A DNA stretch of 64,000 nucleotides from a bacterium. Lineage in GTDB: Bacteria; Vulcanimicrobiota; Xenobia; Xenobiales; Xenobiaceae. The position numbers and the translations under genes are program-made. The notes under the pieces are model-generated. The model saw only the letters and a program-made list of their open reading frames with translations, did no database searches and was not told the DNA's origin. Shown here in pieces: positions 12,150-19,624 of the stretch. The DNA is taken from the NCBI GenBank assembly GCA_030535355.1, contig JAUNIO010000002.1, positions 8,781 to 72,780 on the forward strand, in the 5' to 3' direction. The stretch's first letter is position 1. The number at the start of each line of letters is the position of its first letter.

Positions 12150-13055
12150 TTGGCTGAGCAGGATTTTCAGAACGATAACTTTATTATTGTCACCGGCATG
12201 TCAGGAGCGGGAAAAACTCTAGTCACCAAATGCTTGGAAGACCAGGGTTATTATTGCGTTGACAATATCCCGCCGGCGCTGCTGCTGAAATTCGCTCAGC
12301 TATGCAATTCCTCCAGCATTACCAAATTAGCTATCGCCATAGATGTGCGCAGCCACAATTTTTTCGCCGACATCGACCAGGCCATTGAAGAGCTGACCTT
12401 GGCGGGGTTTTCCCCCCAGATATGGTTTGTCGAAGCTAACCCAGAAGTTTTAGTGCGCCGCTTTGCCGCCAACCGCCGCCAGCACCCTCTGGCCAGCGAC
12501 GGCCGCGTAGTCAACGGCATAGAAGAAGAACAAAAACTGCTGACTGCCCTGCGCAGCCGGGCCAGTTACATTATCGACACCAGCAAACTAACTCCCCACC
12601 AGCTGCGCGGCACTATCGTCGAGCATTTCAATCAGGCTAGCTCCCAAAACAGTTTAGGCCAAGTTCACGTGCTCAGTTTTGGTTTTAAATATGGAGTGCC
12701 CCTAGACGCCGATCTGATTTTCGACTGCCGCTTCCTGCCCAATCCCTACTATATTCCCGAGCTAAAACCGCTCACCGGTGCTCATCCCCTGGTTTCTGAA
12801 TACGTTTTCAGTTTCGATGCTACCCAAAAGTTCGTAGACAAAATTATAGAGTTTTTGAGTTTCGTCATGCCTCTGTATCAGCATGAGGGTAAGAATCACG
12901 TCGTAGTTGGGTTTGGCTGCACAGGAGGACGCCACCGCTCCGCCGCTATTGCCGCAGAAAGCAGCCGCCGCCTCAGCGACGCCGGTTTTAAAGTCAGTTT
13001 AGAACATCGCGATATTACTAAAGATGACCGCGAAAACGACGACAAACACGCCTAA
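12150..13055 (+). CDS. rapZ: RNase adapter / nucleotide-binding protein RapZ (YvcJ family).
   Basis: It has a TTG start with an AAAGGAAG RBS, a P-loop (IVTGMSGAGKT) and YCVDNIPP. 301 aa. Confidence 0.85.
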   Translation: MAEQDFQNDNFIIVTGMSGAGKTLVTKCLEDQGYYCVDNIPPALLLKFAQLCNSSSITKLAIAIDVRSHNFFADIDQAIEELTLAGFSPQIWFVEANPEVLVRRFAANRRQHPLASDGRVVNGIEEEQKLLTALRSRASYIIDTSKLTPHQLRGTIVEHFNQASSQNSLGQVHVLSFGFKYGVPLDADLIFDCRFLPNPYYIPELKPLTGAHPLVSEYVFSFDATQKFVDKIIEFLSFVMPLYQHEGKNHVVVGFGCTGGRHRSAAIAAESSRRLSDAGFKVSLEHRDITKDDRENDDKHA

Positions 13056-14406
13056 AAAGAAAAAATCTCTCCCTCCCTCCAAGGCCAGTATTTGGCGGCC
13101 CGGTTTAGGCATTAAGCGCTGTTTTTTCGCTCTGGCTGCCGGGTTTATTTTCTTATGCTGCGGCATCATTCTGCTTTTCAGCACCACCTGGGCACTATGC
13201 GTGGAAGAAAGCTTGACAAACGCCAGCTTAAATTGGCTGGGGTGGCACATTTCCAGCTTTAGCGTCGATATTTTTCTACTGGTTTTAGGGCTTGTATGTC
13301 TGGGTTGGGGACTGTGGCGAGCGGCTTCGTTCCTTTATAACGCGTCTCAGGCCCACCCCAGCTCTAGCATGATGGATGCCCTGGCCTTAGGGCGGCGGCG
13401 CAATTACGGTCTGAAGATCGTGGCCTTAGGCGGCGGTACTGGCTTATCTACACTGCTGCGCGGCCTCAAAAAATACACCTCCAATATTACCGCCGTAGTT
13501 TCCGTTTCCGACAACGGCGGCAGTTCGGGACGGCTTTCCAAGGAACTGGCGATGCTGCCCCCCGGCGACATCCGCAACTGCCTGACCGCCCTGGCCGACG
13601 ACGAAGACCTGCTGACCGAGCTGTTCCGCTTCCGCTTCGATAAAGGGGAAAGCCAAAGTTTAGGAGGCCACGCTTTCGGAAACCTTTTTATAGCCGCCCT
13701 GAACCAGATTTACGGCGACTTTGAAGTAGCTTTAAAAAAAGGCAGCGCCCTGCTGGCCATCCGCGGCCGGGTTCTTCCCGCCACATTAACAGCTACGGTG
13801 CTGTGCGCGAAGATGCGCGATGGGCGGATTATTAAAGGAGAAAGCGAGATTCCCAGCGCTCAGGGAGAGATCACCGATGTATTTTTAGAACCTGGCAGCT
13901 GCCAGGCACCCCCCGAGGTGATTAAAGCTATCGAAGAAGCCGACGCCATCATTTTGGGGCCGGGAAGCTTATACACCAGTGTCATGCCCAACCTGCTGAT
14001 CAAAAATATCGTCAAAGCGCTGGAGCGCACCGAAGCCCCCATTATTTATGTCTGCAACGTGATGACTCAAAACGGGGAGACCGACGGCTATACGGCAGCC
14101 GACCATTTGCAGGCCATCTATCACCATCTCAAAAAGCCCCTGGTCGATTACGTAATCGCCAATGCCAGCGCCCCCAACAAAAAACTGCTGGAAAAATACG
14201 CTAAAGAAGGTTCAAAGCCGGTGGTTCTGGATTACGAGCGCCTGCAAAGCATGGGAGTGCATCCAGTTTATGCCAAATTATCCAAAGATGAGCAGCTGGT
14301 GCGCCACGATCCCGACTATTTAGCTGAAGCGATTATGGATCTGCTGGGAGAGGTCAAATACCGCGACGGCTCAGAAGGCGCGGACAGCATGAGATCGCCG
14401 AATTAA
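13024..14406 (+). CDS. YvcK / CofD-like (UPF0052, gluconeogenesis-factor family) protein with an unusual ~130-aa N-terminal extension carrying two predicted TM helices.
   Basis: The core starts KIVALGGGTGLSTLLRGLK. It overlaps rapZ by 32 nt, the conserved rapZ-yvcK arrangement. The N-terminus has hydrophobic segments (FFALAAGFIFLCCGIILLF, IFLLVLGLVCLGWGLW). Confidence 0.8.
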   Translation: MTAKTTTNTPKKKKSLPPSKASIWRPGLGIKRCFFALAAGFIFLCCGIILLFSTTWALCVEESLTNASLNWLGWHISSFSVDIFLLVLGLVCLGWGLWRAASFLYNASQAHPSSSMMDALALGRRRNYGLKIVALGGGTGLSTLLRGLKKYTSNITAVVSVSDNGGSSGRLSKELAMLPPGDIRNCLTALADDEDLLTELFRFRFDKGESQSLGGHAFGNLFIAALNQIYGDFEVALKKGSALLAIRGRVLPATLTATVLCAKMRDGRIIKGESEIPSAQGEITDVFLEPGSCQAPPEVIKAIEEADAIILGPGSLYTSVMPNLLIKNIVKALERTEAPIIYVCNVMTQNGETDGYTAADHLQAIYHHLKKPLVDYVIANASAPNKKLLEKYAKEGSKPVVLDYERLQSMGVHPVYAKLSKDEQLVRHDPDYLAEAIMDLLGEVKYRDGSEGADSMRSPN

Positions 14407-14771
14407 TTTATTTCTTTTACAAATGGTTTACAAAATGTTAAAAATCAACTCAACCTACAGGTTGACTAATTGTTCATTCAGAGATATTATTAAACCGCAG
14501 TCAACAGTCAATGCAGTTAGTCTACTCTAGATTGCAGAACGCTATTCTGGCTGCCCTGAATGGAATAATCTGCAAAGATTAAACATAGAAGGTCTTAAAA
14601 AAAATTAAACGCATTCAAAACTGTTGGTAGCAGTAAAAAATGCGTTCAATATCTCAGAAGTGCTATCACTCCTAAAGCTTACAACTGGTATGATAGCACC
14701 TCTGAGAGGCTATGTCAAGCGTTAATGAGACGTATGGCTAGCTTACATATACTCTCAGAGGAGGCAATAAT

Positions 14772-15446
14772 ATGTCCAAAATACGGGCAACAATCGCAGA
14801 TGGCTGCGATTCAAGTATTATTCCTGGTCTTCAGTACGATGGATTATTAGGTATCCCGCTTATCAAAAGGCCAGACAAAATCATCATTCCGAAAAACATC
14901 GTACCATTTTCCAAACGCAATTACACAGCCGATCTCGACGTAGCCATCGGATTCTACGAGATGGACGAAAAATTTGCTGATTTGCTCTGCCATCCGGAAG
15001 CATATGTCGAAGATTTAAGTCGCTTTTCAGCGATAATCTCTCCCGACTGTTCTCTATACCTGCCCAACTCACTGGGCAGCCACATTACTAACATATATAG
15101 AAGCCGGCTTATCGGCTGCTTCTTTCAGGCCAAACGCCTGTACGTCATACCTCAAATCCGCTGGGGCAAAGAAACTACTTATACGGCAGGGGCATTGCAA
15201 GAAAAAGCTGCTTTCCTCGGCGTTGAAAAACACAGCATTGTAGCGATCGGCACTTACGGCTGCTGTCAGCACAGAGAAGAAAAGCGCCATCTCAAAGCTG
15301 GGTTAAGTGCTATGCTAGATACGGTACAGCCAGATACCGTGTTGGTGTATGGGCCTATGCCTCCGGCAATTTTCGGCGAGTTCCTCCAAAGAACAAACTT
15401 TGTTCCTTACGACAACTGGTTAAAACGCGTAAAGGGAGGACAATAG
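14772..15446 (+). CDS. Uncharacterised protein of 224 aa, paralog A of the island pair.
   Basis: It is homologous over its whole length to the 16545..17210 product (IPxxxRPxKIxIP, VIPxxRW, YTAxxL, FVxYxxW). An RBS (AGAGGAGG) is present and it lies in a low-GC context. Confidence 0.6.
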   Translation: MSKIRATIADGCDSSIIPGLQYDGLLGIPLIKRPDKIIIPKNIVPFSKRNYTADLDVAIGFYEMDEKFADLLCHPEAYVEDLSRFSAIISPDCSLYLPNSLGSHITNIYRSRLIGCFFQAKRLYVIPQIRWGKETTYTAGALQEKAAFLGVEKHSIVAIGTYGCCQHREEKRHLKAGLSAMLDTVQPDTVLVYGPMPPAIFGEFLQRTNFVPYDNWLKRVKGGQ

Positions 15447-15447
15447 T

Positions 15448-15957
15448 ATGGGTAGCGGCAGCAGTTATTCCTATTCTGGAACCAGCGGCGGGTCGCAGCC
15501 CTACGCTGAAACCTACGGGGTAGTTCCCGAAGCGCTCAACAAAGACAAGAAAGACCCCGACATTTACGATAAAGCAGAAGGGTATTTCAAGAATCCGACA
15601 GCAGTATCTCTAGCTTCCGCTATAGATGGTAACAGAGTGACTTTTAATAATCTCAGCGCCCATGGAAAATACACTTATGTTATGGATAAGAACGGCAATA
15701 TTATCTTTGGTAAACGTTGCAATCCTAATGACATAAGCAAACGTTCTCCTCATCCTACGCTCATTGGAGGTAAAAATCCACAAGTGCAATGCGCAGGTAT
15801 TATCGCGATGAGCAAAGGGAAAATCACCAATATAGATAATATGAGCGGACATTTTAAGCCGCATCATAGATCTTTAAATAAGGTTTATGACGCTCTTCAT
15901 AAACTGCATGAAAGCAATCCTAACATCTTCTCTACACGTTTTCAATGGAGGGAATAG
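15448..15957 (+). CDS. Candidate toxin of 169 aa with a Gly/Ser-rich N-terminus and a C-terminal HNH/EndoVII-like motif (sGH-x3-HH-x3-N-x7-H).
   Basis: It starts 1 nt after paralog A with a GGGAGGA RBS. The motif is MSGHFKPHHRSLNKVYDALHKLH. It is immediately followed by a small acidic ORF. Confidence 0.5.
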   Translation: MGSGSSYSYSGTSGGSQPYAETYGVVPEALNKDKKDPDIYDKAEGYFKNPTAVSLASAIDGNRVTFNNLSAHGKYTYVMDKNGNIIFGKRCNPNDISKRSPHPTLIGGKNPQVQCAGIIAMSKGKITNIDNMSGHFKPHHRSLNKVYDALHKLHESNPNIFSTRFQWRE

Positions 15958-15959
15958 GT

Positions 15960-16418
15960 ATGGAAGAAGAGATATTAAGTTATGAAACCGCTTCTTTATT
16001 TAATCGTTCTTTCGAAGAAGAGATCACAGATGCTGAAGAGACAGCATTACTAGATCGCGCAAACGCTTTAATTAATACGTTTGGCTGGAAAAAGGTGTTT
16101 AACTCTTGGAATAACTACCTTCACCACCAATGCCTAACTCCAGAATCTGCGATCAATTTCGCCAATTGGTTCTGGTTCTATGGAGGTCATGAGCACCCAA
16201 TCCCCAATCCTTATCATTTTATAGCGTATTTCTATTATCGTATTGACTATGCAATTCAGAAATATGACATTTCGGATATCTTGGATAGTCTCGCTACCAG
16301 CATCTTGCCCAAAGCAGGCCATCGCGAAGCGGATTTATATCTAAATCCCTACTACATGCCGGAAAGTGACCCCCAAATACGGGCAGAAGTTGAAAAGCTC
16401 AAAAAACAAAACAGCTAA
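15960..16418 (+). CDS. Candidate immunity or partner protein (~153 aa, acidic, Trp/Tyr-rich).
   Basis: The ATG lies 2 nt after the preceding stop, with a GGAGGGAAT RBS. It has no recognisable domain. The ORF track gives an in-frame upstream start at 15945 that would overlap the toxin stop. Confidence 0.45.
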   Translation: MEEEILSYETASLFNRSFEEEITDAEETALLDRANALINTFGWKKVFNSWNNYLHHQCLTPESAINFANWFWFYGGHEHPIPNPYHFIAYFYYRIDYAIQKYDISDILDSLATSILPKAGHREADLYLNPYYMPESDPQIRAEVEKLKKQNS

Positions 16419-16544
16419 CCACACCAGACTACGCCAGAAGAATTCTCACTGCTAAAGCTTCAAAGCATCTCAATGAGTACTTCTGGCTTCATTTTCACTG
16501 CACAGCACTTGTTTGATAATAGCTATTGTCAGGAGAGAAAACTC

Positions 16545-17210
16545 ATGCCGAAACAACAATACCGCGACGACGGCTGTAACCCAGAAATACTTGCTGGGGC
16601 AAAATTTGCAGGCACTCTAGAAATACCAGTCGTAGAACGGCCTAGCAAAATCGTTATACCAGATACGCCAGTTCCTTTTTCACAGCACGCACAATGCCAA
16701 AATCAAAACGCTTTCTTAGTCATCTCCGAACCTGATGTCAATTTCTCTGATATTCTGCGCAATCCAGAACCTTATTGCCAAATCGCTAACAATTACGCAG
16801 GCATAATAACTTTAGAACCCGCTCTATTCACTGGAGCTAAGCTAGCTGAACAAATCGCTGTAACCCAGCGCAACCGCACTTTGGCACATTGTTTTCAAAG
16901 GCACTGCGTTGAAGTTATCCCACATCTGCGCTGGAAAGACAAAAATAGCTATACAGCGACCGTTTTGCCAGATAAAATCGCCTTAATAGGTCTGCCCCTA
17001 AACAGCATTGTGGCCTTGGAAACTAATTCATGTCTTAATAGCGACATGGACAAACTGCGTTTACAGTTAGGCCTACAAGCCGTTCTGGAAGAACTGCAGC
17101 CGCAAATTATTTTAATATTCGGAGCTATGCCTGACGAAGTATTCTCCAATTTTCAGCATGATACCGTATTTGTCAATTATAATCCATGGCCACCAACAAC
17201 ATCTTTATAA
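16545..17210 (+). CDS. Uncharacterised protein, paralog B of 14772..15446.
   Basis: It is homologous to paralog A. The start at 16545 is preferred (RBS AGGAGAG). The upstream region is homologous to the region upstream of paralog A. Confidence 0.6.
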   Translation: MPKQQYRDDGCNPEILAGAKFAGTLEIPVVERPSKIVIPDTPVPFSQHAQCQNQNAFLVISEPDVNFSDILRNPEPYCQIANNYAGIITLEPALFTGAKLAEQIAVTQRNRTLAHCFQRHCVEVIPHLRWKDKNSYTATVLPDKIALIGLPLNSIVALETNSCLNSDMDKLRLQLGLQAVLEELQPQIILIFGAMPDEVFSNFQHDTVFVNYNPWPPTTSL

Positions 17211-17324
17211 ATCGGCAGCAAACTACCAGCGGCTTACATCAACCTTCTGGTTGATAATATTCGTTACTTGGTGTAAACTACTTCACGTTAGCGGATGGTA
17301 AAACAACAATGGGGAGGTGAGCAC

Positions 17325-17699
17325 ATGCTGACAAGTTTAGGCAAGTTTTTGAGAAAACTGCGCATAGACAGAGGAGAGATACTACGCGACATGGCGGACA
17401 AACTTGGCGTTACAGTATCATTTCTCTCTGCTGTTGAAAATGGCAAAAAAAGAATGCCCTCATTATGGAATAACAGAATCTGTGAGCTATATAGCCTGGA
17501 TATACATCAGCAAGAATCTTTTACAAAAGCGATAGCTGAAACAGAAGATACCATTGAAATGAATTTAACTTCAGCCAGCGCCAACAGACGGGAATTAGCT
17601 ATTGCTTTCGCGCGCTCTTTTCACAATATCGATACTGAGCAGATAACTGCCATTCATAAAATACTACAGAAAAGGAAGCAAAGCAATGACCAGCATTAA
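17325..17699 (+). CDS. XRE-family helix-turn-helix transcriptional regulator.
   Basis: The N-terminal HTH (LRKLRIDRGEILRDMADKLGVTVSFLSAVENGKK) and a GGAGGTGA RBS support the 17325 start. Confidence 0.7.
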   Translation: MLTSLGKFLRKLRIDRGEILRDMADKLGVTVSFLSAVENGKKRMPSLWNNRICELYSLDIHQQESFTKAIAETEDTIEMNLTSASANRRELAIAFARSFHNIDTEQITAIHKILQKRKQSNDQH

Positions 17700-18213
17700 A
17701 GCTAACCCTATATCTCGGATAGAAATTAGAAAAATAGCCTATATTATACGTGCCATAGCCGATACGCTCAACAGTCCTTATTTTCCAATAATATATTTTA
17801 TTGAGCATACTTTACCAAGAGATATGCCAGAATTCAATTACGAAATTGTTAATCTACAAGATATGCCTCACAATCATGCTGAAACACATCCTGACCAAAA
17901 CCTAATACAAATTAGGGAAGATGTATATCTTAGGGCTATAAAGGGCTGTGGTAGGGATCGCTTTACCCTTGCTCATGAACTAGGCCATTTATTATTACAT
18001 AGAGCCAACTGCATTTCATTATGCAGATTAGCTCCTAATAAAAGATTAAAACCATACGAAAACCCGGAATGGCAAGCCAATGCTTTTGCAGGGGAGCTAC
18101 TTATGCCGATAGATATAATCAAAGATATGAGTATCTATCAAATCTGTCATCAATGCGGCGTTTCTGCAGATGCCGCCCGGTGTCAGCTCAGCTTACTTAA
18201 AAATGCCAGATGA
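17686..18213 (+). CDS. ImmA/IrrE-family (COG2856) zinc metallopeptidase.
   Basis: It has the HEXXH motif (LAHELGHLLLH) in the typical context and overlaps the XRE gene by 14 nt, the classic XRE-ImmA pair. Confidence 0.75.
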   Translation: MTSIKANPISRIEIRKIAYIIRAIADTLNSPYFPIIYFIEHTLPRDMPEFNYEIVNLQDMPHNHAETHPDQNLIQIREDVYLRAIKGCGRDRFTLAHELGHLLLHRANCISLCRLAPNKRLKPYENPEWQANAFAGELLMPIDIIKDMSIYQICHQCGVSADAARCQLSLLKNAR

Positions 18214-18268
18214 CCATTGAGCACTCTGCACTTCGTCCCCCCCCCTTGTTTAGCAAACACTAAATCCG

Positions 18269-19624
18269 CTAGACCTCAGAATCTCCCAGCTCCCCATACA
18301 TGCGCTCCAGCATCTCCTCAGCCCGGGCACTGCCCTTCTCCGCCGCCTGACTCAGCAAATGCAGCGCCGCTTCAGGATCTGCGGGAATGCCCAAGCCGCC
18401 CTGATAAAACTCTGCCAGAGAAATCATAGCCTCAGTATGGCCTGCCGCCACCGCCCGTTTCAGGAAACCTACACAGCGCTTGACATTTTGCTCCACGCCC
18501 TCTCCGCGGAAATACATAAACGCCAAAATATACATAGCCGCCGGATGGCCTTCGTCAGCGGCACAGCGCAGATAGTGCACCGCTTTGGGCAAATCCTGCT
18601 CTGTATTATGCCCTAAACGATACATCTGCCCCACAGCGAACTGAGCGTCCACATGGTCGCGATCTGCAGCCATCTGCGCATAACGCCAGGCTTCTTGAGG
18701 ATCGCGGGGGATACCATCACCAGAATCGTACAATTTGCTCAGCATGTACATGGCCTGGGGCCAGCCCATATCGGCGTCATCCTGCAGAAGCTGCACAGCC
18801 TGCGCCACATCTTTGGGCACAATTCCCCCCTGCAGATATAAAGACGCCAAAAAAGTCGATGCTCCCACCACGCCCTGAGAAGCCGCGTCGCAGATTCTGG
18901 AAATATTATTGTATAGATCTTCTGGCGGACAGTTATTCATCAGCGCACAGGCGGCATCTATGAATTTGCGTTTTACCGGTGAAGCTACCATATTGCCAAT
19001 AGCTTTCCCTAAATGCTGCAGCTGCGCCACAGTAGGTATATCTTGCCATTCCGCCGTTTCCGCAAATTCCTGCAGCGATTCATTCGGGCTGCGGCGCAGA
19101 GATTCTATAAGCTCGCGGCGCAGCTGAGGCTCCACAGGCCAGCCGTATTTATCTATGCCGTTCATCAGCACCGAATCGGAAACATCGCAGCCATGCCCGG
19201 CAGCTAAACACAGATACTCGCCGCCTTTCACCGCATCTTTGGGCACACCTATGCCGTAAGAATACATCTGCCCTAAACAGCCGTAAGCGTAGGGATTGCC
19301 CAGTTCCGCAGAGCGGTGCATTAGGCGCAAAGCTTCGGGACATTCCCCCATGAAGAGATTGTCTGCCAGCAGCAGCAGAGCGTACAGGACCATAGCGTCG
19401 GCATGGCCGCTTTCCGCAGCCTGCTTCACATAGCGCCGGCACAGCTCTAAATTCACTTCACAGCCCACTCCGCTCAGGCACATTTTCGCTACGCAATAAG
19501 CCGCATCGGCATGCCCATTATCGGCGGCGCGCCTAAAAGATTTAAACGCCAAAGCCTCATCTTCAGCCAGAGCGCCGGAAACGTCCTCTGAACCAGTATT
19601 GTTCGAAGTATCTGCCGCCATCAT
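18269..19624 (-). CDS. Sel1-repeat (TPR-like) protein.
   Basis: 451 aa with ~36-aa repeats recurring more than 8 times, each with G-x-G-V/I-x-x-D and A-x-x-W/Y-x-x-A-A-x-x-G. Confidence 0.8.
   Translation of the reverse strand: MMAADTSNNTGSEDVSGALAEDEALAFKSFRRAADNGHADAAYCVAKMCLSGVGCEVNLELCRRYVKQAAESGHADAMVLYALLLLADNLFMGECPEALRLMHRSAELGNPYAYGCLGQMYSYGIGVPKDAVKGGEYLCLAAGHGCDVSDSVLMNGIDKYGWPVEPQLRRELIESLRRSPNESLQEFAETAEWQDIPTVAQLQHLGKAIGNMVASPVKRKFIDAACALMNNCPPEDLYNNISRICDAASQGVVGASTFLASLYLQGGIVPKDVAQAVQLLQDDADMGWPQAMYMLSKLYDSGDGIPRDPQEAWRYAQMAADRDHVDAQFAVGQMYRLGHNTEQDLPKAVHYLRCAADEGHPAAMYILAFMYFRGEGVEQNVKRCVGFLKRAVAAGHTEAMISLAEFYQGGLGIPADPEAALHLLSQAAEKGSARAEEMLERMYGELGDSEV

Follow-up and report, generated by a model that had tools for sequence, protein, structure and literature searches.

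Two closely spaced genes at positions 15448–16418 of the window, by which we mean the whole 64-kb stretch of DNA that was analysed, had been read in an earlier note as a stand-alone nuclease toxin and its immunity protein. The locus poses three questions: whether the pair is indeed a toxin with a protective partner, whether it stands alone, and what the toxin acts on. Taken as a whole, the data are best explained, with good though not full confidence, by a toxin and cognate immunity protein that form the variable cargo of a three-gene cassette led by DUF4417, the toxin being presumably RNA-targeting.

Organization of the cassette

The predicted features of the cassette are the following.

14772..15446, + strand: DUF4417 protein, conserved partner gene of the cassette (224 aa, compact TIM-barrel-like)
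15448..15957, + strand: putative toxin gene (169 aa, ATG start)
15448..15501, + strand: N-terminal Gly/Ser/Tyr leader of the toxin, residues 1–18, MGSGSSYSYSGTSGGSQP
15514–15942, + strand: toxin core domain (residues ~23–165), assigned to an unnamed family of polymorphic-toxin C-terminal domains
15960..16418, + strand: putative cognate immunity (antitoxin) gene (152 aa, pI 4.85; new family, no Pfam match)

The toxin ORF is preceded by a GGGAGG ribosome-binding site, and its ATG lies 1 nt past the stop codon of the DUF4417 gene. The immunity ATG (15960), with a GGAGGG site upstream, follows 2 nt after the toxin stop codon (TAG, 15955–15957), as had been described previously; an identical public protein (P0121) is not annotated as beginning at the alternative ATG at 15945. 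Also in agreement with the earlier description, G, S, Y or T occupy 15 of the first 18 toxin residues, the C-terminal string MSGHFKPHHRSLNKVYDALHKLH is present (residues 132–154), and the downstream partner is both acidic (net charge –11) and rich in aromatic residues (F/W/Y, 16.4%). The partner gene itself is real, while its product is 152 rather than 153 residues long, the latter figure counting the stop among 153 codons. The toxin, for its part, is basic (pI 9.37). Homologues of the ~170-aa toxin fall into at least 430 clusters (identity 56–88%) and those of the immunity protein into 73; judged from sequence, both ORFs are real, conserved genes. The label ‘stand-alone’ had to be given up: toxin and immunity gene are the second and third genes of a DUF4417–toxin–immunity cassette.

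The candidate immunity gene

Copies of the 169-aa toxin gene are present in 59 species-level loci, and in 52 of these the immunity gene directly follows. Across the families, the median pI is 4.5 for immunity proteins and 9.3 for toxins, and the immunity proteins are the most divergent members of the cassette (mean pairwise identity 36%, vs. 57% for the toxin and 54% for DUF4417). Pairwise distances of toxin and immunity protein correlate at 0.64, those of toxin and DUF4417 at 0.34. We also asked whether the immunity protein co-varies with the C-terminal third of the toxin in particular, an idea that was discarded (r 0.47–0.53, not above the 0.59 obtained for residues 23–110).

Arrays were found in the form of DUF4417–toxin–immunity–immunity, of toxin-fragment–immunity–immunity–immunity, and of a toxin C-terminal fragment next to an intact immunity gene, the tandem immunity copies being 33–55% identical to one another. 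Orphan modules of toxin tip and immunity gene, or immunity arrays, occur in loci L022, L024, L026, L061, L068, L069, L071 and L073; the window itself contains neither orphan modules nor immunity arrays. Long toxins bearing the same terminal domain are followed by a different, DUF6960-like family (seven of seven cases), and a proposed homology between that family and the 152-aa proteins was rejected (hhalign probability 0.4).

With regard to classification, the locus departs from type II toxin–antitoxin systems in being a three-gene operon with the protective gene last and in the 152-aa protein having no DNA-binding match; Pfam searches with this protein returned no HTH, RHH, AbrB or other family. 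The earlier reading as toxin and immunity protein, by contrast, is sustained by a core homologous to Rhs, CdiA-like and eCIS C-termini, by an acidic, fast-evolving downstream partner, and by the orphan arrays. Positions 15448–15957 and 15960–16418 thus very probably encode a toxin and its protective partner, with the immunity protein presumably binding and blocking the basic toxin.

A widespread putative toxin domain with invariant histidines

A profile search of the toxin domain covering 1.84 billion cluster representatives yielded 1046 matches. Among the 69 proteins above 250 aa in length, the domain ends at most 20 residues from the C-terminus in 52, and thus occupies the C-terminal position on varied trafficking or repeat N-terminal regions (RHS+DUF6531, RHS+PT-HINT, eCIS_core, TPS+Fil_haemagg) that is expected of polymorphic toxin systems; for a further, VgrG-like carrier, the Phage_GPD match is weak and falls below threshold. 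A CdiA locus of Cronobacter has the domain in an orphan ORF that overlaps the preceding VENN pre-toxin ORF. Gut and rumen bacteria commonly carry the free-standing form, which spans at least eight phyla. Its family is patchily distributed, with 50–64% identity across phyla, a pattern that we take to reflect horizontal transfer. Searches by tblastn gave no match in 50,697 phage genomes and two matches in plasmids, both to long-toxin forms.

Among 111 diverse domains, two histidines (H102 in the motif PHPTLxGG and H135 in SGH[FY][KR]P) are kept in all 111, followed by R90 (110), S133 (107) and T104 (100). No recognisable nucleotide-binding motif was seen in the 169-aa toxin. Several candidate functions were tried and rejected: a cysteine protease or deamidase acting via C115 (Cys in only 14 of the 111 domains), a double-glycine bacteriocin leader (GG at positions 14–15 is not conserved), and a 2H phosphoesterase, which needs two H-x-[ST]-x motifs where only H102-P-T104-L fits and the second invariant His lies in S-G-H-[FY]-[KR]-P.

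Toxin and immunity protein had no meaningful match in scans of Pfam, NCBIfam, PHROG and PADLOC; hmmscan of the toxin against Pfam-A at E ≤ 1 returned only dCache_1 (E = 0.074). Searched against PDB sequences, the single toxin and the toxin-family profile gave nothing or noise (e.g. cholera toxin B, E = 0.37). The AlphaFold model of the toxin is moderately confident (pLDDT 76.5; ~52 for the H102 loop) and consists of predicted helices followed by an antiparallel sheet; a PDB fold search found no solved structure resembling it. By its homologues, the toxin core is a member of an unnamed family of polymorphic-toxin C-terminal domains for which Pfam has no model.

A Met-Gly leader shared by interchangeable cargoes

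In 97 of 148 cases, the DUF4417 stop codon abuts the ATG of a downstream Met-Gly ORF. These 97 loci yield 85 distinct leader proteins in nine unrelated C-terminal domain clusters, with the consensus M-G-[STA]-G-x-S-G-x-Y-x-[GN]-T-[KR]-G across the 85. In every case this leader comes after a DUF4417 gene; it is missing in the Rhs, CdiA and eCIS forms, in which the match begins at about profile position 20–45. Four cargo clusters match Pfam families (EndoU_bacteria, Ntox50, DUF6883 and PBECR1), the PBECR1 match falling below its gathering cut-off. Of these, EndoU is an RNase family, PBECR1 bears the name of a BECR nuclease, and Ntox50 has been predicted to be a BECR RNase (PMC3482391). Toxin clusters and downstream-gene clusters correspond nearly one-to-one (e.g. 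39 cases of X170–Y150 and 16 of EndoU–I2), and the downstream partner families are all acidic. Because the 80 loci of the metagenome sample were ranked on their similarity to a single query, cargo frequencies are biased.

The DUF4417 protein has many invariant polar residues, and among solved folds its predicted structure comes closest to TGT/DpdA transglycosylases, which outscore generic TIM barrels by very little; searches of the family profile against PDB sequences gave nothing or noise and no similarity to TGT/DpdA. Some cassettes sit on phage-like contigs, and the same cassette and leader occur in Gram-positive and Gram-negative hosts. Phage proteins fusing ParB to DUF4417 were considered as a further setting for leader toxins and set aside, what follows in Streptococcus phage IPP53 being a gene for a protein of 248 aa that has the JAMM-like motif HNHPxxS..D.

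One N-terminal part with many toxin domains, a type-specific immunity gene downstream, and orphan modules and arrays are all features of polymorphic toxin systems, of which the cassette is, by this gene content, a new variant. The task of DUF4417 in it, as an enzyme-like protein with a TIM barrel, is probably to recognise or process the leader.

Linkage to KptA/Tpt1 and a possible RNA target

Of 74 loci with this toxin domain, 31 include a gene for KptA/Tpt1, compared with none of 74 DUF4417 loci with other cargoes (Fisher p = 2e-11); the remaining 43 loci with the domain have no KptA nearby, and the 64-kb window contains no KptA gene. The linked genes belong to the KptA/Tpt1 family, the PF01885 (PTS_2-RNA) assignment on locus L005 being a precomputed annotation, and they represent two clades and several arrangements. 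Three toxin architectures are involved, namely DUF4417–toxin–immunity, DUF4417–toxin–DUF6960-like–KptA (in Fibrobacter), and Rhs–toxin–DUF6960–KptA. Across 27 linked copies, residues R15, H16, R73, R117 and R135 are each at least 95% conserved, and they are read as the R-H-R-R catalytic set of Tpt1 (PMC8120803).

KptA being specific to this domain and absent from loci with EndoU or other cargoes indicates a different end-product. The link need not mean a 2′-phosphate, since KptA also ADP-ribosylates 5′-phosphate ends in vitro (PMC8120803). No bacterial pathway is known to make RNA 2′-phosphates, though bacteria keep Tpt1/KptA (PMC6333775, PMC8120803), and our literature searches on KptA/Tpt1 with toxins found no earlier description.

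The toxin is probably RNA-targeting and may leave a 2′-phosphate. We envisage that it acts on RNA by metal-independent phosphoryl chemistry via H102, H135 and R90, together with T104 and S133. Its product would probably carry a 2′-phosphate, the toxin being either an RNase that leaves 2′-phosphate ends or an enzyme that 2′-phosphorylates RNA, and KptA/Tpt1, where linked, would undo this damage. The full version of this scheme, in which the toxin sets or leaves a 2′-phosphate on RNA (most plausibly tRNA), bacterial KptA/Tpt1 is its antidote and DUF4417 is a TGT-like enzyme acting on the leader, is a speculative one that we regard as unlikely in this complete form.

Genomic surroundings and the question of delivery

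Around the cassette, the following additional features were predicted.

14652..14761, no strand assigned: probable operator/promoter of the cassette, with a 17-nt inverted repeat and the motif TCTCAGA[AG]G in three copies (function deduced from these repeats)
16473..17210, + strand: second DUF4417 gene, a divergent paralogue (245 aa; 35% identity with the first)
17295..17699, + strand: XRE-type HTH regulator, CapH-like (134 aa; Pfam HTH_31/HTH_3; PADLOC capH, E = 8e-8)
17686..18213, + strand: M78 (ImmA/IrrE-type) metallopeptidase, CapP-like (175 aa; Pfam Peptidase_M78, E = 3.5e-13; PADLOC capP, E = 1.4e-17)

The arms of the inverted repeat (14652–14668 and 14691–14707) are 94% complementary, and three of the four TCTCAGA[AG]G motifs in the 64-kb window (0.75 expected) lie within 14652..14761. 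A 26-nt direct repeat (14655–14680 and 16435–16460) precedes both DUF4417 genes. The second of these has no toxin behind it and has lost the SPDCS motif, which is nearly invariant in the family; a metagenome scan with this copy gave no close relatives. HTH genes adjoin the cassette in ~16 loci, the M78 gene overlaps the HTH gene, and the order HTH–M78–DUF4417–toxin–immunity is seen in L010 and L082. The pair resembles CapH/CapP of CBASS and other defence operons as well as ImmR/ImmA, and it probably represses the operon until a stress or phage signal arrives; in the window, however, it lies downstream of the second DUF4417 gene, not upstream of the operon, and only the operator-like repeats point to its regulation of the cassette. 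The cassette island has a GC content of 0.37–0.49 (flanks, 0.52–0.57). Elsewhere, defence genes beside the cassette include type I and MmeI restriction–modification, ABC-3C and STAND genes.

These surroundings bear on whether the toxin is delivered to other cells at all. The same pair could belong to a purely intracellular, tripartite toxin–antitoxin or abortive-infection module, or an island-addiction module, in which DUF4417 would serve to sense or trigger and the HTH/M78 pair would switch in response to damage or phage, and we consider this a serious contender, if one short of even chances. Such a role would suit a toxin that has neither a signal peptide nor a known secretion domain and whose cassette and leader do not differ between Gram-positive and Gram-negative phyla, that neighbours restriction–modification, ABC-3C/Lamassu-like and STAND genes and adjoins CapH/CapP-like regulators, and that resides on a small low-GC island, with cassettes also on phage-like contigs. 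It accounts less well for the divergent orphan immunity arrays and toxin-fragment modules at loci without DUF4417 (L061, L068, L069, L071 and L073), which are a signature of protection from incoming toxins, and for the combination of one leader with swapped C-terminal domains, which is the design of polymorphic toxins that are trafficked. Defence against incoming damage would also be a fitting setting for a linked repair enzyme such as KptA. A further point against the intracellular reading is that the 2023 release of PADLOC holds no model for DUF4417, the toxin or the immunity protein.

A very unlikely reading is that the genes form a non-toxin pathway of RNA or tRNA modification or repair, with the 152-aa protein as a regulatory subunit and the Rhs/CdiA fusions as secondary recruitments. 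Two linked proteins do have affinities to RNA or tRNA enzymes (the TGT-like fold of DUF4417, and KptA), and H102-P-T104-L recalls the HxTx motif of 2H phosphoesterases, enzymes that process KptA’s product (PMC9503650). Yet there is one HxT motif rather than two. EndoU, Ntox50 and further toxin domains occupy the identical position after DUF4417, every one of them paired with an acidic partner of its own. Five classes of delivered toxins have the 169-aa protein's domain at their terminus, the distribution of this domain is patchy and horizontally transferred, and pseudogenised toxins are found beside intact partners.

Least credible of all is the original proposal of an HNH/EndoVII ββα-Me nuclease, i.e. 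an SHH/AHH/GHH-type DNase binding metal via H139-H140, N144 and H151. A motif of the HH...N...H kind does occur in the window protein, with the spacing HH-x3-N-x6-H in place of the x7 initially given; a basic protein with an acidic partner downstream would likewise fit, and the SGH tripeptide is superficially reminiscent of what we take to be the ‘sGHH’ signature. Among the 111 domains, however, H139 is kept in three, H140 is rarely His and N144 is kept in ten, while members of the close ~170-aa family mostly have Gln in place of H151 and the position after SGH is F or Y throughout the toxin family. In the AlphaFold model, all four residues are located on one helix (140–156) instead of a β-hairpin plus helix. 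The Pfam scan of the 169-aa protein contained no Tox-* or HNH family at E ≤ 1, NCBIfam nothing relevant to HNH, and the lack of a PDB fold match for the model counts in the same direction. The earlier note had tied the nuclease claim to the presence of a ββα-metal fold; the predicted structure displays none, and the claim therefore fails.

Comparison with known systems

The reading of the pair as variable cargo of a DUF4417-first cassette places it closest to Rhs, CdiA-CT and eCIS toxins, which share a homologous terminal domain, an immunity gene directly downstream, and orphan modules and arrays (Zhang et al. 2012, PMC3482391). In contrast to these, the present toxin is a free-standing protein of 169 aa with a 15–18-residue leader and no Rhs, haemagglutinin, VgrG or eCIS carrier, and its 152-aa immunity family is unrelated to the DUF6960-like family of the long toxins.

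LXG toxins with their helper proteins follow the same plan of a polymorphic toxin that depends on a small partner. MuF-fused prophage toxins (PMC5576092) likewise combine a conserved N-terminal module and a neighbouring gene with swappable toxins and matching immunity. Here, however, the module comprises only ~15 residues, the partner DUF4417 is enzyme-like rather than a capsid or secretion component, and there is no evident delivery route; unlike MuF prophage toxins, this toxin type lacks any match in the phage genomes searched.

BECR-fold, metal-independent RNase toxins (EndoU, colicin E5/D, Ntox50, RelE) invite comparison in that EndoU, Ntox50 and PBECR1-like domains are sister cargoes in the DUF4417 slot. 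The invariant His pair, Arg and Ser/Thr of the toxin fit the residue types of some BECR clades (two His, Arg, Ser/Thr; Zhang et al., PMC3482391), and the predicted topology, with helices preceding an antiparallel sheet, could be accommodated by this fold. No sequence or structure match to any member (Barnase/EndoU/colicin E5-D/RelE) was found, though, and the KptA linkage is peculiar to this domain.

For the proposed logic of a toxin as writer and KptA as eraser, archaeal tRNA 2′-phosphorylation provides a precedent, with ArkI writing and KptA erasing the mark (Ohira et al. 2022, PMC9095486). ArkI, however, is a housekeeping enzyme of the protein-kinase fold, to which the 169-aa toxin is unrelated in sequence, and writing is one of two activities considered for the toxin. 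DUF4417, finally, is much smaller (224 aa) than the DpdA/DpdB and TGT proteins with which it was compared.

Literature searches found no description of the toxin domain, the 152-aa immunity family or the arrangement of DUF4417 plus leader; DUF4417 was mentioned without a function and DUF6960 not at all. Consistent with the database searches, all three are without a counterpart in Pfam, NCBIfam, PHROG, PADLOC or PDB.

Implications

If this reading is right, it adds a widespread toxin family, with 1046 matches among cluster representatives. For DUF4417 it would supply a first functional setting, that of a constant companion to exchangeable toxins whose Pfam-matching members of known or predicted function are RNases. 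It would likewise provide a direct experimental handle on why bacteria keep KptA/Tpt1, as well as new RNA-targeting enzymes and matched inhibitors as tools. In the complete, less likely scheme, DUF4417 would load, process or even conjugate the toxin via the Met-Gly leader, which would amount to an unrecognised trafficking or activation route for polymorphic toxins in Gram-positive and Gram-negative bacteria. To our knowledge, the physiological substrate of bacterial KptA/Tpt1 has been unknown for decades. Should the 2′-phosphate scheme be true, KptA/Tpt1 would be an enzymatic antidote to the Rhs-, CdiA-, eCIS- and DUF4417-borne toxins of this family.

The probable toxin gene lies in a three-gene unit

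The ORF list and the sequence confirmed a coupled gene pair, the partner gene starting 2 nt past the TAG of the toxin gene. On the 5′ side, a spacing missed in the earlier note places the toxin start 1 nt from the stop of a gene whose 224-aa product is a DUF4417 protein (Pfam E=1e-40):

14772–15446, + strand, first DUF4417 gene (224 aa)
15448–15957, + strand, toxin gene (169 aa), ATG start, GGGAGG site upstream
15960–16418, + strand, partner gene (152 aa), ATG at 15960, GGAGGG site upstream

Further downstream come another DUF4417 gene and genes for an XRE-type HTH protein and an M78 peptidase. The toxin is basic (computed pI 9.37) and the partner, as first noted, acidic and aromatic-rich (pI 4.85; 16.4% aromatic residues); the latter is identical to a public 'hypothetical protein' (P0121) from an uncultured-bacterium MAG. 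An 85-aa antisense ORF within the toxin gene (15610–15867, − strand) had no support and was treated as spurious.

Judged by homology, both genes are real and conserved, with >430 toxin homologues of ~170 aa at cluster level (56–88% identity) and 73 partner homologues. In Holdemanella contigs the trio reappears beside a type I restriction-modification system as a DUF4417 gene and genes for 170 aa and 148 aa, with stops that overlap the next start. Scanning one genome per GTDB species yielded 68 loci, with hosts among Firmicutes, Bifidobacterium, Bacteroidaceae, Fibrobacter, Synergistaceae, Planctomycetales, Succinivibrionaceae, Anaerolineaceae and others. The order DUF4417–toxin–partner was near-universal among these loci, Bifidobacterium having toxin–partner–DUF4417, and cross-phylum identities of 50–64% point to horizontal spread.

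DUF4417 genes and interchangeable cargo

A metagenome scan with the DUF4417 alignment added 80 loci, bringing the DUF4417 genes to 148, of which 97 are followed by a Met-Gly ORF whose ATG abuts or overlaps the DUF4417 stop. A leader is common to 85 distinct proteins (M1 and G2 in 85/85, G4 in 77, S6 in 59, G7 in 72, Y9 in 79, T12 in 59 and G14 in 68), and downstream of it lie nine unrelated domains: EndoU_bacteria, DUF6883, Ntox50 (E=1e-27), a PBECR1-like domain, the window's toxin family and four without a Pfam match. Every toxin type is paired with an acidic downstream gene family of its own. DUF4417 followed by a leader-bearing toxin was found among metagenomic loci L084–L163 and at 1626–3143 of L010, 4998–6482 of L079 and 3998–5617 of L082, three further loci outside the window. 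The second cassette of L010 reads HTH–M78–DUF4417–EndoU toxin–small acidic protein, and this layout, with other cargo, recurs on one viral contig and on a phage-like scaffold. Among the cargo families, EndoU comprises RNases, Ntox50 has been predicted to be a BECR-fold RNase (PMC3482391) and PBECR1 carries the name of a BECR nuclease.

The window's toxin has G, S, Y or T at 15 of its first 18 residues, in agreement with the flexible Gly/Ser/Tyr N-terminus described earlier; given the common leader and the swapped domains, this segment is a conserved leader of DUF4417-linked toxins. The pair, first taken to stand alone, is, on comparative sequence evidence, one of the cargoes in a polymorphic toxin system that is anchored by DUF4417 and apparently undescribed.

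DUF4417 itself is modeled as a compact, TIM-barrel-like protein (pLDDT 85). Its many invariant polar residues (DDG, E-x-D, SPDCS, R110/R112, GTYGC and K171) suggest an enzyme rather than a passive adaptor. Phage DUF4417 is usually fused to a ParB-like domain. In Streptococcus phage IPP53 (L164, 1991–3812), the gene after ParB-DUF4417 encodes no leader toxin but a 248-aa protein containing a JAMM-like HNHPxxS..D motif as well as a Gly-rich segment, indicating a different partner for the ParB-fused clade.

The partner behaves as an immunity protein

The toxin–immunity reading proposed at the outset gained support from several sides. The partner consistently follows the toxin, with family median pIs of 4.5 vs. 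9.3. It is the fastest-evolving of the three (mean pairwise identity 36%; toxin 57%, DUF4417 54%), and in pairwise distance it correlates with the toxin more closely (r=0.64) than DUF4417 does (r=0.34). With DUF4417, toxin and partner as D, X and Y, several genomes have the layouts D-X-Y-Y, X-Y-X-Y-D or D-X-Y-(X fragment)-Y; other loci, without DUF4417, have an X fragment with three Y genes behind it, or an intact Y preceded by nothing of X but its last ~65 codons. Tandem Y copies are only 33–55% identical to one another. Together, these features support a partner that behaves as an immunity protein of a new family.

In long toxins with the same domain, the downstream gene was DUF6960-like in 7/7 loci rather than Y, and hhalign found Y and the DUF6960-like family unrelated. 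Fibrobacter loci join X to both DUF4417 and a DUF6960-like gene. In Fibrobacter succinogenes (L052, 7947–8882), a single 311-aa ORF contains both the toxin and the DUF6960-like immunity domain, and DUF4417 is split, reflecting either a fusion or assembly frameshifts.

A new polymorphic-toxin domain

When 1.84 billion representative proteins were searched with a profile, 1046 relatives came up; in most of the long ones the toxin domain forms the last ~140 residues. The N-terminal parts of the carriers comprised RHS repeats plus DUF6531, RHS plus PT-HINT, a VgrG-like region (recognised by a weak Phage_GPD match under the Pfam cut-off), an eCIS core domain, or a TPS domain with haemagglutinin repeats. 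One Rhs carrier adjoins FtsK/EssC-like and small WXG-sized genes. The Cronobacter condimenti plasmid pCCO1 (L083, 38573–50941) carries a CdiA-like locus with a long array of orphan modules; in one, downstream of the CdiA-like gene, a 'VENN pre-toxin' ORF is followed by an overlapping orphan ORF with the toxin domain and a DUF6960-like gene. This distribution among Rhs, VgrG-like, eCIS, haemagglutinin and CdiA-like contexts identifies the core of the 169-aa protein as a predicted polymorphic-toxin C-terminal domain (PMC3482391). As Cronobacter condimenti is a cultured, annotated organism, the domain is testable there.

The proposed HNH/EndoVII nuclease did not hold. The motif first given as HH-x3-N-x7-H lies within residues 132–154 (MSGHFKPHHRSLNKVYDALHKLH), with an N-to-H spacing of x6 rather than x7, and its residues vary in the family alignment. 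Of 111 diverse domains, 3 retain H139 and 10 retain N144, and H140 is rarely His. H102 and H135 are kept in 111/111 and R90 in 110; a near-invariant Cys of the close toxin family is Ala in most long toxins. In place of a beta-beta-alpha-metal fold, the AlphaFold model (pLDDT 76.5) comprises five strands and three helices, two of them short; the third, C-terminal one (140–156) carries every residue of the motif. Neither profile libraries (Pfam, NCBIfam, PHROG, PADLOC) nor PDB sequence searches returned a match; the domain lacks a Pfam model, is unnamed and is new.

A low-GC island, probably regulated

The six-gene block forms a low-GC island (14400–18250; GC 0.37–0.49 vs. 0.52–0.57 in the flanks), with neither an integrase nor a direct repeat at its flanks detected. 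Features of the island and its borders are:

12150–13055, rapZ-like gene, 5′ side
13024–14406, yvcK/CofD-like gene, paired with the former
14652–14761, 17-nt inverted repeat together with TCTCAGA[AG]G in three copies, shortly before the first DUF4417 gene
16435–16460, second copy of a 26-nt direct repeat common to the upstream regions of both DUF4417 genes
16473–17210, + strand, second DUF4417 gene, a paralogue with 35% identity to the first
17295–18213, overlapping XRE-HTH and M78 (ImmA/IrrE-type) peptidase genes, matching the PADLOC CapH and CapP models
18269–19624, − strand, Sel1-repeat gene, 3′ side

The motifs and repeats are probably operator sites. The second DUF4417 has lost the near-invariant SPDCS, keeps E63, D65, R112, C164 and K171, precedes no leader-toxin and had no close relative in a metagenome scan; it may be what is left of a second cassette, or may serve as a regulatory copy.

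Two roles fit these data. An inducible intracellular module of the abortive-infection type would accord with the CapH/CapP-like pair, which also lies upstream of DUF4417-toxin cassettes in L010 and L082, with the operator-like repeats, and with cassette neighbors in other genomes, often defence genes. Toxins reaching other cells would fit the leader with its swappable domains, the orphan immunity arrays and a linked repair enzyme, KptA.

A KptA link points to a possible RNA target

In 29/68 species loci, a gene for KptA/Tpt1, an RNA 2′-phosphotransferase, is found no more than a few kb from the toxin gene. The linked enzymes fall into two clades, conserve the likely catalytic residues R15, H16, R73, R117 and R135, and occur in several arrangements, one of them translationally coupled right behind the immunity gene; Fibrobacter has a coupled four-gene operon, DUF4417–toxin–DUF6960-like–KptA. 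The domain is also accompanied by KptA in an Rhs toxin (L005) and in a short form from Bacteroidetes (L064). As an internal control, loci with the toxin domain had KptA in 31/74 cases (among L005–L073, L097 and L137; e.g. at 3818–4357 in L059 and 8987–9535 in L011) and DUF4417 loci with different cargo in 0/74 (Fisher p=2e-11), which ties KptA to this toxin domain and not to DUF4417, the immunity family or RNase toxins generally.

Tpt1 removes RNA 2′-phosphates with NAD+, its bacterial role being unexplained (PMC6333775, PMC8120803), and archaeal Tpt1 erases a kinase-written tRNA 2′-phosphate (PMC9095486). From the KptA link in other loci, the window having no KptA gene, we infer that the toxin targets RNA and yields a product bearing a 2′-phosphate. 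Via H102, H135 and R90, it would act either as an RNase leaving 2′-phosphate ends or as a 2′-phosphorylating enzyme. The genomic tie between KptA and this toxin makes the long-standing question of the role of bacterial Tpt1 testable.
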